Origin: Candidatus Nomurabacteria bacterium
GTDB lineage: Bacteria > Patescibacteriota > Minisyncoccia > Phycocordibacterales > UBA918
Length of the DNA stretch: 64,000 nucleotides
Direction: 5' to 3'
NCBI GenBank assembly: GCA_020632035.1
Contig: JACKGG010000003.1
Coordinates: forward strand, 36,534 to 100,533
Positions within the stretch are counted from its first letter, which is position 1. Every line of letters starts with the position of its first letter. Below the pieces are notes generated by a model. It saw only the letters and a list, made by a program, of their open reading frames with translations, searched no databases and was not told where the DNA came from. The position numbers and the translations under genes are program-made. Below, piece by piece: positions 54,780 to 57,349 of the stretch.

Positions 54780-55466
54780 ATGACTACCGTCACCGATAAG
54801 AAAAGTATTTCTGATGAGAACTATGCAAGAGTTATGCGAGTGTTACATGACGCCGAGACTCGTTTGTTGAAAGGCTCGCTTGATCCCGATGCTGTCGTTT
54901 TGGTGTTGTCGCATCTAAATGGAAAGGGAAGTAGAGCCGAAAATCTCATCGAGTATGCGAAGGAGAATTGCCCCAAGATCGACTGGAAGGACAAAGCCAA
55001 GCCGAAAGCGCGTCGAAGCCGAAAATCGACCACGCTCTTCAATGAGGCAGAGTTTTTCCAGACGAACGATGATTTATGGGTTGATACCGACCTCGAGAAG
55101 TATGTCGGATTCGAAACCCGCCCGTCTCGACATGCTTCAGCCTTGAAGTGTCGTCCGTTGACACAGAACGAAAACGAAGCACAGCTGTTTGGTCTTCCAG
55201 GGTCTCCAGAGCACATCAAGACTATCACTGAGAGAGCAGTTGACCTTGGTCAGATTGCTGGCAAGATAAAGGCACAAGCAAAAGGTACAGAAGGTGAACT
55301 TTTGAACAACGGTTATGCTAATCTTTTCCCAGTTTGTGGGAAAGATGGTTCGCTCCGTGTGGTGGACGTCCACTGGGCTGCCGTGGACGGTCGGTGGTTC
55401 GTGTACTGCAATCCGTTCACTCCCGACTTCGTCTGGTCTGCTGGCCGCCGGATGCTCAGCAACTAG
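54780..55466 (+). CDS. DGR target (variable) protein with C-terminal C-type-lectin/FGE-like variable region
   Basis: ATG 54780 with a 'gggaga' RBS. The listed ORF extends upstream to 54636. The C-terminal 40 codons form the VR ('GSLRVVDVHWAAVDGRWFVYCNPFTPDFVWSAGRRMLSN'). Confidence 0.8.
   Translation: MTTVTDKKSISDENYARVMRVLHDAETRLLKGSLDPDAVVLVLSHLNGKGSRAENLIEYAKENCPKIDWKDKAKPKARRSRKSTTLFNEAEFFQTNDDLWVDTDLEKYVGFETRPSRHASALKCRPLTQNENEAQLFGLPGSPEHIKTITERAVDLGQIAGKIKAQAKGTEGELLNNGYANLFPVCGKDGSLRVVDVHWAAVDGRWFVYCNPFTPDFVWSAGRRMLSN
55346..55464 (+). repeat. DGR variable repeat (VR)
   Basis: 119 bp aligning gaplessly with TR. 18 mismatches, all opposite TR adenines. Confidence 0.85.
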
Positions 55467-55490
55467 TCTTTAGGACGTTTGTCCTAAAGA
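55467..55490 (+). promoter_or_regulatory. hairpin immediately 3' of VR (10-bp stem, 4-nt loop GTTT)
   Basis: tctttaggac-gttt-gtcctaaaga, starting 1 nt after the stop codon. Analogous in position to the VR-flanking hairpin known to stimulate DGR homing. Confidence 0.5.
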
Positions 55491-55804
55491 GATCCTTTGC
55501 TCTCTACCCTTAGTACTTTGTCCTTGCTTACGGACGAGTGCTTGGGGTAGAGGGTTTTTCTATATATACTGGGTAAGCGTTTGTACAGAGAGCACGATTA
55601 AGGTTGTGCTCCCAAGCGTAAGCGACTGCGCTGACGAGAGTGGCCTCGATTACGGTTTAGGCCAGAGTGTTACGTATCGTTTTCACAATAAGATTAGTTG
55701 GTGAGATAGACTCTGCAATATATGATTGCGCATAAAATACAGTCTTGAGAGTACGTAAAAGTTTCAAAGGACAGTGGTCTGGACGGTCTATCTTTCTATT
55801 CGTC

Positions 55805-55923
55805 TGGTTCGCTCCGTGTGGTGAACGTCAACTGGAATGCCGAAAACGGTCAGTGGAACGTGTACTGCAATCCGTTCAATCCCGACAACGTCTGGAATGC
55901 TGGCAACCAGATGCTCAGCAACT
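55805..55923 (+). repeat. DGR template repeat (TR)
   Basis: 30 adenines, 18 of which correspond to non-A bases in VR. Rich in AAC/AAT triplets. Confidence 0.85.
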
Positions 55924-55932
55924 CATTTATTG

Positions 55933-56358
55933 TCATTGCTCTCCTGCTTTTGTGGGAGAGTTTTGTTTTTCTACTTGTCCTAGCCATCCGCCTAGCATTT
56001 TACCGATTTCATATAGCGGAACGGATAGGCGTTCGTATTTGCCTGTATCTAGTGAACGAGTATCCCAGAGAATGTTAAGCAATAGCTTGATCGTATCAAG
56101 CTTGCGAATGGCAGTTCGCAGGTAGATGACTTTGTCGTTTTTCCTTACAAAGCTGGCACTTGCCACCATTTCCAAAAGTTCAATTAAGAGTTCATCAATT
56201 CTTCTAGCTAGTGTATATCTATGTGGCTTAGGAATTAGGTGATAGATGCTGTGCCAAAAGATGTATACAGAACGTGCCTTTTGCAACACTGGGACTAAAC
56301 TTGCTATGAATGTCTCGGGGGGGGGTAGACTTGTTGTTATGCATAGAAAAAATGACAA
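55933..56358 (-). CDS. avd: Avd-like accessory variability determinant (four-helix-bundle / 'S23 IVS' family)
   Basis: 'IFWHSIYHL...KPHRYTLARRIDELLIELLEMVASA...LYEIGKMLGGWL' matches the four-helix-bundle protein pattern. The listed start is TTG 56358, so the start is uncertain. Opposite strand to the RT. Confidence 0.6.
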   Translation of the reverse strand: MSFFLCITTSLPPPETFIASLVPVLQKARSVYIFWHSIYHLIPKPHRYTLARRIDELLIELLEMVASASFVRKNDKVIYLRTAIRKLDTIKLLLNILWDTRSLDTGKYERLSVPLYEIGKMLGGWLGQVEKQNSPTKAGEQ

Positions 56359-57349
56359 GAAGTTATATGATGGTGATTATGAAAGAATAATATCATTTCA
56401 AAATTTGCTTTTAGCATGGAGGAGTTTTAAATGTGGCAAACAGAAGAAAATCGACGTGCAAGTGTTTGAGCGAGATTTGTTGAATAATATAATGAAATTA
56501 CACGCAGAACTTCGAGCGCAGACTTATCAACACGGTAGTTACAAAGCTTTCAAGATCAACGATCCCAAACCGCGTGATATTCATAAGGCTACTGTGCGAG
56601 ACCGAGTAGTTCATCACGCACTGTATAGAGATCTTGCTGCTTTCTACTTCCCATTATTTATTGCTGATTCGTATTCTTGTCAAAATGGCAAAGGGACTCA
56701 TAAAGCACTTGATAGGTTTACCTATTTTGCTCGTAAGGTCTCACAAAATCACACAAAGACTTGCTGGGTGTTGAAGTGTGATGTTGTAAAATTTTTTGCT
56801 TCGATAGACCAAGGTATTTTGCTAGAGATTCTAGATAAGCGAGTTATAGACAATAGTGTCCTTGGCTTAATAAGGGTGATTGTCGAGAGTTTCAGTTCTG
56901 GTACTTGTGGTAAAGGTCTTCCACTCGGCAATCTCACCAGTCAGCTTTTGGTTAACGTGTACATGAATGAATTTGACCAGTTTGTAAAGCATACTCTCAA
57001 AGCCGAGTACTACATACGCTACGCAGATGATTTTGTGATTTTGAGTTGTGATAGAGCATGGCTTACAAAAACCTTTCATTCAGTTGAAAGGTTTTTGCAA
57101 GCAGAATTGGCTTTAGAGTTGCATCCTCGCAAAGTCTCGATTGAGACAATATCAAGCGGAGTTGATTTCTTGGGCTGGGTGCATTTTCCTTGTCATCGGT
57201 CGTTGAGGACGACTACCAGACGACGGGTTCAGAAAGGTGCCGCAGGGAAGAGTGTAGACTCGCCTACCATTCAATCTTATTTGGGTTTGCTTTCGCATGG
57301 CGACACCAAAAAACTAGAGAGACACATAAGGACTAATCTGTGTGACTGA
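56339..57349 (+). CDS. DGR reverse transcriptase
   Basis: 'LPLGNLTSQLLVNVYMNEFD' (DGR-specific motif 4) and 'YIRYADDFVIL' (motif 5). Start taken at ATG 56339 (MHRKNDKK...). The listed ORF starts at 56246, inside avd. Confidence 0.9.
   Translation: MHRKNDKKLYDGDYERIISFQNLLLAWRSFKCGKQKKIDVQVFERDLLNNIMKLHAELRAQTYQHGSYKAFKINDPKPRDIHKATVRDRVVHHALYRDLAAFYFPLFIADSYSCQNGKGTHKALDRFTYFARKVSQNHTKTCWVLKCDVVKFFASIDQGILLEILDKRVIDNSVLGLIRVIVESFSSGTCGKGLPLGNLTSQLLVNVYMNEFDQFVKHTLKAEYYIRYADDFVILSCDRAWLTKTFHSVERFLQAELALELHPRKVSIETISSGVDFLGWVHFPCHRSLRTTTRRRVQKGAAGKSVDSPTIQSYLGLLSHGDTKKLERHIRTNLCD

Follow-up and report, generated by a model that had tools for sequence, protein, structure and literature searches.

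Diversity-generating retroelements (DGRs) of the Patescibacteria, or candidate phyla radiation (CPR), follow a described layout. Wu et al. (2018; PMC5758913) assign CPR/Patescibacteria DGRs to architecture B3, in which the template repeat (TR) is followed by the accessory variability determinant gene (avd) on the reverse strand and then by the reverse transcriptase (RT) gene. Roux et al. (2021; PMC8144416) place the Patescibacteria DGRs in cellular clade 2, report that their targets lack recognisable transmembrane or other domains, and leave as an open question whether CPR targets are truly non-membrane proteins. Here we analyze a stretch of 64,000 nucleotides (the window) from a Candidatus Nomurabacteria bacterium (contig JACKGG010000003.1 of assembly GCA_020632035.1, forward-strand positions 36,534 to 100,533), in which an initial annotation had proposed a complete DGR. 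We confirm that the element is an active DGR and that it belongs to the type previously described in Patescibacteria. As an explanation of the whole, an active chromosomal CPR DGR with the order target, TR, avd on the opposite strand and RT accounts best for what we observe, and we give this reading a probability of about 0.9. Two leads reach beyond the DGR itself: an apparently permuted structured RNA with a primer segment that matches the repeat boundary, and a repeat-bounded, possibly circular cassette.

Several features of a Bordetella phage DGR recur below. In the cryo-electron microscopy (cryo-EM) structure of that DGR, the strand formed by spacer nucleotides 47–56 (Sp47–56) carries the priming nucleotide, A56. 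Naorem et al. (2017) propose that pairing between the primer and the site at which mutagenic homing is initiated (IMH) explains the directionality of homing in the Bordetella phage, and Guo (2011) and Naorem (2017) describe a stem-loop downstream of IMH. The homing step is still called poorly understood in recent papers.

The locus encodes an active DGR

Exact realignment of TR with the variable repeat (VR) reproduced the gapless 119-nt match of the initial annotation, with an offset of 459, and a repeat search recovered the same pair independently (family D2). The two copies differ at 18 positions, and the TR base is A at every one (VR has G at seven, T at six and C at five), which leaves 12 of the 30 adenines in the 119-nt TR without a change in VR; all of these counts agree with those first reported. 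Given 30 A in 119 nt, the probability that 18 of 18 mismatches would fall on A by chance is ~1.7e-11. The differences between TR and VR are confined to TR adenines, and VR lies inside a coding gene, as the 3′ end of an open reading frame (ORF) of 228 codons. The changes are placed at codon positions 1 or 2 in 17 of 18 cases. TR had been described as rich in AAC/AAT, and 11 such codons are in frame; when all A-to-N changes in TR were checked, none could create a stop codon, and up to ~1e17 protein variants are reachable.

The same cassette is present in six other public assemblies, which come from different samples. Outside VR, over 54634–57517 (~2.9 kb), there are 0 mismatches across these six, and TR is identical. 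VR, in contrast, occurs as four alleles in the seven assemblies: three further alleles differ from that of the window at 1, 20 and 17 sites, and 37 of these 38 differences lie at TR adenines. The initial annotation had suggested looking for VR heterogeneity at the A-templated sites within the population, and in assemblies this is the pattern found. Of the 30 TR adenines, 25 are altered in at least one allele; the two 3′-terminal ones, which lie inside the primer duplex proposed below, are unmutated in every allele. The 90% identity cluster of the target protein likewise holds four sequences, which are identical over residues 1–195 and differ only in VR. Because the VR alleles vary at TR adenines and TR and the rest of the cassette are constant, we conclude that the element is active in nature, with ongoing mutagenic retrohoming into VR.

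The sole non-adenine difference of the 38 is a G-to-A change at a TR guanine in contig L094 (ERZ795048), at the VR position equivalent to window 55390; this may be a sequencing error, as the contig has about 2x coverage. Three contigs that are 99.8–99.9% identical to the window (L089–L091) are filed under both Candidatus Nomurabacteria and Candidatus Kaiserbacteria.

The best match of the RT in the PDB is the Bordetella phage DGR RT, bRT (8ub7, a cryo-EM structure; E 4.4e-43), and the next is a group II RT at 1.8e-16. Its motifs LGNLTSQLLVNVY and YADD align with IGSLTSQLFANVY and YMDD of bRT, with LGNLTSQ facing IGSLTSQ, so that both the (I/L)GxxxSQ and the YxDD signatures of the DGR clade are present; the DGR-specific 'GNLTSQ' and 'YADD' of the initial annotation therefore hold. 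By these motifs, the RT is a member of the DGR clade. A search of Rfam over 54250–57700 at E <= 1 gave no match, including none to a group II intron or retron RNA. The locus has neither the RNA domains and above-threshold RT/maturase of a group II intron nor the msr/msd RNA and retron-clade RT of a retron, and retron RT models score far below their cut-offs.

The longest ORF for avd encodes 141 residues from a TTG at 56358, and the NCBI gene call encodes 118 from a GTG at 56289. The product passes the Pfam model PF22296 (bAvd) with 49.7 bits against a cut-off of 40, which upholds the proposed Avd assignment, and it matches NCBIfam DivGenRetAVD with E 9e-19 and 67.7 bits, below the cut-off of 80. 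The position of avd between TR and RT and its opposite strand were correctly described at the outset. The accompanying remark that this arrangement is less common does not stand, since B3 is the published order for this lineage and an opposite-strand avd is typical of it. A run of nine G (56317–56325) lies in the 49-nt gap between the divergent starts of avd (GTG 56289) and RT (ATG 56339). It is a possible slipped-strand switch; among the assemblies, its length does not vary.

To place the locus among its relatives, we scanned one genome per species and found 128 loci that encode relatives of the target, essentially all in Patescibacteria metagenome-assembled genomes (MAGs). About 31 of them have avd and RT nearby, and in every one the order is target (+), TR (+), avd (−) and RT (+). 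The VR–TR offset is ~430–480 nt in most of these ~31 loci, and VR/TR mismatches are adenine-biased without exception. With a TR, a reverse-strand avd and an RT in a Patescibacteria genome, the DGR belongs to architecture B3.

The target matches exactly a hypothetical protein from a Candidatus Nomurabacteria MAG. As first noted, it lacks a signal peptide, and it also lacks a transmembrane segment: the highest 19-residue Kyte-Doolittle mean is 0.84, and the N-terminus is not hydrophobic. The small protein looks cytoplasmic. The full sequence has no match in Pfam, NCBIfam or the PDB. Its C-terminal domain (residues ~82–228) belongs to a large unannotated Patescibacteria family of small proteins, which comprises at least 1,819 clusters, none with a Pfam domain. 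The AlphaFold model has a predicted local distance difference test score (pLDDT) of 95.8 and a weak resemblance to FGE/C-type-lectin folds. Foldseek comparison of the model with the PDB gave nothing significant, and profile searches of the domain against the PDB and Pfam gave chance-level matches only. The cassette also contains a 19-bp inverted repeat (54678–54696 / 54714–54732; 95% complementary), located in the target gene's 5′ untranslated region.

Table 1. Coordinates of the DGR, the associated RNA elements and the flanking repeats, in window positions.
Feature	Position	Strand	Basis or remark
Left flanking direct repeat, displaced clpP 3′ end (last ~48 codons + stop)	54479–54633	−	Abuts cassette left end
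DGR target gene, 228 aa	54780–55466	+	ORF; NCBI hypothetical protein H6785_02920
Variable repeat (VR)	55346–55464	+	Encodes last 39 target residues; realignment and independent repeat search
IMH-like site CAACTAGTCTT at VR 3′ boundary	55460–55470	+	Complementary to leader 55690–55700
Hairpin after VR	55467–55490	+	Perfect 10 bp, loop GTTT; starts 3 nt past VR
Conserved structured RNA leader	55555–55804	+	25-locus alignment, covariance model
Leader T-run and −10-like TATACT	55565–55570 (TATACT)	+	Promoter-like
Leader helix P1	55590–98 / 55603–11	+	25-locus alignment
Leader helix P2, then A-rich linker	55641–51 / 55654–64	+	25-locus alignment
Candidate guide/primer-strand segment AAGATTAGTTG	55690–55700	+	Followed by near-invariant GGTG (to 55703), just 5′ of P3; would be equivalent to Bordetella Sp47–57
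Leader helix P3, long-range	55703–12 / 55785–94	+	Encloses P3a (55716–28) and P3b (55742–72)
Template repeat (TR)	55805–55923	+	Same sequence in every assembly with the cassette
avd (accessory variability determinant)	55933–56358	−	Pfam bAvd match; between TR and RT
Hairpin and U-tract	55938–55971	+	10-bp stem, 4-nt loop, 15 nt after TR; terminator scan
DGR reverse transcriptase, 336 aa	56339–57349	+	Best PDB match bRT 8ub7; RVT_1 E 1.7e-21
23-nt clpP 3′-end remnant (encodes VDKVYK*)	57367–57389	−	17 nt past RT stop; repeat family D3
Right flanking direct repeat, 3′ end of intact clpP (57519–58124)	57518–57674	−	Repeat comparison

Direct repeats of a gene 3′ end flank the cassette

The cassette is bracketed by two direct repeats of 155–157 nt, which are 82% identical and have an exact core of 49 nt in common. 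On the right, the repeat is the end of an intact clpP; on the left, it is a displaced clpP end (Table 1) that is annotated in other assemblies as a 39-aa CLP_protease fragment. The frame of the left fragment is open, and it differs from the intact clpP end by 16 synonymous-only codon differences and three amino-acid changes. As the differences are mostly synonymous and the frame is intact, the two copies would have diverged in separate lineages while each was still a working clpP end. A relative of the cassette that lies in a different genomic setting (L006) becomes homologous exactly at the inner edge of the left repeat, at 54633. The short clpP remnant just past the RT gene looks like the scar of an earlier insertion beside another clpP. 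A related cassette (L001) lies beside rny, which encodes RNase Y, and there 87-nt repeats of the rny 3′ end (4706–4792 and 7581–7667 of that contig) have the same geometry as the clpP repeats; both copies are in frame and show conservative changes only. Further relatives of the cassette sit among glycosyltransferase genes.

Two Logan contigs bear on whether the cassette can leave its site. L092 (SRR12358676) and L093 (SRR12358675) each measure 3,069 nt; the two ends of each contig overlap by 30 nt, the rotations differ, and each closes into a 3,039-bp circle. This length equals the spacing of the flanking repeats, and the circle has a single, hybrid repeat whose crossover lies within the core of 49 nt. 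We put the odds that a real circular or tandem form of the cassette underlies these contigs at roughly even. The competing explanation, which we place just short of an even chance, is that the circular contigs are artefacts of the de Bruijn graph, that the flanking repeats are an old local duplication, and that the cassette is not mobile. The exact core of 49 nt is longer than k = 31, so a cycle could arise in the graph without any read that spans the circle junction; yet for the cycle to be unbranched in two separate runs, the chromosomal branch k-mers would have to be absent or much rarer than the cassette. The cassette ORFs include no recombinase gene, and neither an empty rny–clpP site nor a reciprocal junction was found, as exact ClpP and RNase Y look-ups and a degenerate junction pattern in Joint Genome Institute (JGI) metagenomes returned only occupied sites. 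Against an old duplication, most differences between the repeat copies are synonymous and the frame is preserved, which is not how a copy would decay in place. The relative beside rny, with its rny-end repeat of the same geometry, the other relatives in unrelated contexts and the third clpP end inside the cassette also argue against an immobile cassette.

A motif, ATAGTGAnnnnnnGGGTGGGGTAA, occurs at both ends of three other cassettes (L012, 95–121/4179–4205; L020, 1407–1538/7396–7527; L082, 7108–7132/10064–10088), and several of its copies overlap a plus-strand ORF at the 3′ end of that ORF. The L012 and L020 units also include a 363-aa ORF resembling helix-turn-helix (HTH) proteins after the RT gene. 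In an ENA contig (L096, positions 1–343), the flank on the 5′ side of clpP, away from the cassette, is unlike the window beyond 58213, which suggests a strain-level rearrangement next to clpP.

A conserved structured RNA precedes the template repeat

The 340-nt interval between VR and TR is conserved across the family. From a T-run and −10-like box up to TR, an alignment of 25 loci (A6) supports a leader with six helices, in which 35 of 39 pairs show compensatory changes. Paired cells make up 95.9% of the alignment at these positions, compared with 67.5% in column shuffles and 39–46% when the partners are slid, and the covariation score is 0.85 versus 0.29 shuffled and 0.12–0.20 slid. A covariance model built from the alignment (R1) has one match in the 64-kb window, at 55555–55805 with 158.6 bits, and it matches 28 more loci that did not contribute to it, in each case on the target strand and between target and TR. 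The leader has no match in Rfam (54250–57700, E <= 1).

On the other side of TR, a hairpin of 8–13 bp with a U-tract is found 10–25 nt beyond the repeat in nearly all of 28 related loci, with stem sequences that differ. The avd stop codon lies directly beyond it on the other strand, so there is no room downstream of TR for a spacer like that of Bordetella. Handa et al. place stem-loops that bind Avd a short way downstream of TR, and by analogy the hairpin at 55938–55971 is probably both the Avd-binding stem-loop and a terminator for the TR RNA and the convergent avd.

Two observations adjoin these RNA elements. In five loci (L010, L037, L052, L026 and L040), the leader RNA and the sequence that follows it lie downstream of a gene of the target family, but neither avd nor RT was detected in the vicinity and a VR match was not found; such leaders may be relics, or an RT encoded elsewhere may serve them. 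In addition, ten diverse loci share a conserved block, (C)CTTAG..CTTTGT.CCTT (alignment A5; window 55490–55530), which lies beyond the VR hairpin and ahead of the T-run and −10-like box, and which may be part of target-site recognition or a target terminator.

Within the leader, a near-invariant TTGGTG precedes P3 in the related loci, and the stretch on its 5′ side is variable. In the window this stretch, AAGATTAGTTG, forms an 11-bp duplex with one G-U pair with CAACTAGTCTT, which consists of the last 5 nt of VR and 6 nt of VR-specific flank, stop codon included. The predicted energy of the leader segment is −14.4 kcal/mol with the VR site and −10.5 with the TR junction. VR/TR identity stops at 55464/55923, and the leader complementarity continues into the VR flank, not the TR flank. 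By its sequence, then, the 3′ boundary of VR is of the IMH type: it is unlike the end of TR and is followed by an inverted repeat. This hairpin, 55467–55490, may by analogy be the counterpart of the Bordetella stem-loop downstream of IMH.

Over 39–40 loci, the mean ungapped duplex between the segment and its own VR junction is 7.18, versus 4.92 +/- 0.19 for permuted loci (0/20,000 permutations), and the mean energy is −10.1 versus −6.24 +/- 0.38 kcal/mol (0/10,000). Pairing with the TR junction of the same locus is also locus-specific, though weaker (−7.76 versus −5.45), and 31 of 40 loci have VR as the stronger partner. Many loci have AAACT at the end of TR and CAATT, CGATT or CAAGT in VR, so that non-adenine changes are included, and the leader follows VR. 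A purely VR-specific guide is ruled out by a gapped duplex analysis, in which the motif shows a weaker, two-part pairing with the TR junction; such pairing is as expected of a primer strand. In the Bordetella phage, taken as a control, Sp47–56 pairs over 10 bp with the IMH of VR versus 7 bp with that of TR (IMH*). We had considered this BPP-1 complementarity as a new observation and dropped it, since it is already in Naorem et al. (2017).

These features can be assembled into a mechanism. An RNA of ~400 nt (about 55572–55971) would be transcribed from its own promoter and end at the hairpin and U-tract beyond TR. Its 5′ leader would fold into the covarying helices and take the roles of the Bordetella spacer downstream of TR, which would make the RNA circularly permuted. 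The segment AAGAUUAGUUG-GGUG (55690–55703), just 5′ of P3, would pair with the 3′ end of TR (CAACU and flank) and provide the priming nucleotide, and RT–Avd would copy TR back to P3 and misincorporate opposite adenines. The RNA-linked cDNA could then anneal to the VR sense strand, where the RNA primer segment would pair more strongly with the VR-specific boundary at 55460–55470, making VR, not TR, the recipient. The hairpin at 55467–55490 may aid exposure of the site, and the new allele would be fixed by replication or repair. This primer reading of a permuted RNA would explain both the TR adenines that stay unmutated in the primer duplex and the junction differences that go beyond adenines.

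From topology and covariation, we infer that the CPR leader does the work of the Bordetella spacer from a position upstream of TR. The primer strand and GGUG would correspond to Sp47–58, and P3, whose 3′ strand ends 10 nt before TR, to the stop duplex of Sp59–70 with avd369–379. P3a and the A-rich single strand would match the stem-loop and A-minor adenosines, P3b would be an RT-binding stem, and the hairpin after TR the Avd-binding stem-loop.

Alternatively, the DGR RNA may not be permuted. The leader would then be only a 5′ untranslated region, a promoter, a regulatory element or part of the 3′ untranslated region of the target mRNA, and the priming and RT-binding elements would lie downstream of TR, antisense to avd, as they do in canonical DGRs. 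We consider this unlikely. In its favor, the stem-loops that bind Avd and the stop duplexes that Handa et al. report for CPR DGRs lie around TR, in the canonical layout. Furthermore, searching the BPP-1 DGR region with the leader covariance model gave no meaningful match, so that no RNA homology with the Bordetella spacer is detectable. However, in nearly all loci there is no free spacer in which such downstream elements could lie, as the hairpin and U-tract come 10–25 nt after TR and the avd stop follows. Six covarying helices and near-invariant single-stranded blocks exceed what a promoter needs, and the variable leader segment tracks the 3′ junctions of both TR and VR, locus by locus. Finally, a segment 5′ of a long-range helix that ends 10 nt before TR mirrors the Bordetella arrangement of Sp47–58 beside Sp59–70:avd369–379.

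Several points weigh against the permuted RNA with its primer segment and against the wider account of the locus. The permutation is argued from topology, with a covariance model that finds nothing in BPP-1, and covariation, together with analogy to a single phage system, is the basis for every RNA role proposed here. The TR junction is the better partner of the motif in 9 of 40 loci, which would also suit an unpermuted RNA. Because the loci share ancestry, the permutation statistics treat them as more independent than they are, although at least eight distinct motif variants each match their own VR. The leader–VR complementarity could instead reflect RNA–RNA pairing within a read-through target transcript. 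Lastly, the modeled fold of the target is only weakly like a C-type lectin.

Other explanations of the repeats and reverse transcriptase

Two further explanations concern the DGR itself. The element could be a decayed or inactive DGR relic, or the repeats an ordinary duplication with differences that fall on adenines by coincidence. One genome snapshot by itself cannot demonstrate activity, but coincidence would put all 18 mismatches at A with a probability of only about 2e-11, every gene is intact with YADD present, and three extra VR alleles differ almost exclusively at TR adenines on an unchanged TR and cassette. A relic is very improbable, and the allele data already contradict it. Least credible, to the point of being negligible, is an RT from a group II intron, a retron or a defence system beside repeats unrelated to it: the top NCBIfam match is a group II RT/maturase model, followed by Drt3a and retron models, but these matches are far under their cut-offs (TIGR04416, 135 versus 300 bits), bRT outranks every other solved relative by 27 orders of magnitude, and an Avd gene and a TR/VR pair adjoin the RT.

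Discussion

The natural alleles described here come from several samples and sit on a perfectly clean background, which makes this locus a good example of DGR activity in situ, acting on a target without an export signal. Beyond the single element, the two leads can be combined into one tentative proposal, to which we give somewhat less than an even chance: the Patescibacteria DGR clade would use a circularly permuted RNA, with the primer strand, stop helix and RT-binding elements in a leader of ~240 nt and a guide of 8–12 nt that pairs with the VR 3′ boundary, and its 3-kb cassette would move as a recombinase-less circle by way of a captured gene 3′ end. A leader segment that covaries with the VR boundary over 40 loci offers comparative support for the idea of primer–IMH pairing put forward by Naorem et al. 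(2017). If true, this guide–boundary covariation would provide comparative evidence, for the first time, on how DGR cDNA selects VR over TR, and primer–boundary pairing would be a simple design rule, usable to retarget compact CPR DGRs. The structured leader, the junction-complementary segment and the cassette-flanking repeats are unmentioned in the CPR DGR literature covered, which does not extend to Paul et al. (2017).

The cassette can be compared with genomic islands that integrate at gene 3′ ends and bring along a replacement end, of the tRNA/tmRNA type with Campbell-type integration of a circle. In both, diverged direct repeats of a gene 3′ end bracket the cassette and leave the gene intact, a displaced fragment lies at the far end, and a circular form, which for the cassette is a possible one, carries a hybrid repeat. 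Unlike these islands, the cassette has no integrase or other recombinase and is only 3 kb long, and it uses the ends of protein genes, which differ between relatives (clpP here, rny in L001).

The DGR of BPP-1 (mtd-avd-TR-brt) has the RT that is the closest solved relative of the RT described here, and it shares Avd, adenine mutagenesis and a stem-loop after VR with our element. An RNA primer strand with greater complementarity to the VR boundary than to that of TR, a helix that closes off TR beside that strand and a stem-loop just after TR are also common to both. The two differ in that avd of our element is on the other strand, after TR, and in that the primer-strand and RT-binding-like RNA elements would lie upstream of TR and not downstream, in keeping with the proposed permutation. 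Our element also lacks the GC-rich 14-mer, and its target is not a phage tail protein. The target is a candidate for the C-type-lectin/FGE folds of DGR variable proteins such as Mtd, TvpA (2y3c) and AvpA, to which its model bears a weak resemblance.

The closest likeness is to the CPR DGRs of architecture B3 and clade 2. Our element shares with them the host lineage, the gene order, the reverse-strand avd and a cellular, non-phage context, together with a small target that has no recognisable domain, signal peptide or transmembrane segment, and at the gene level it does not differ from them. The DGR of the window adds one more case to a class whose abundance in Patescibacteria is known.

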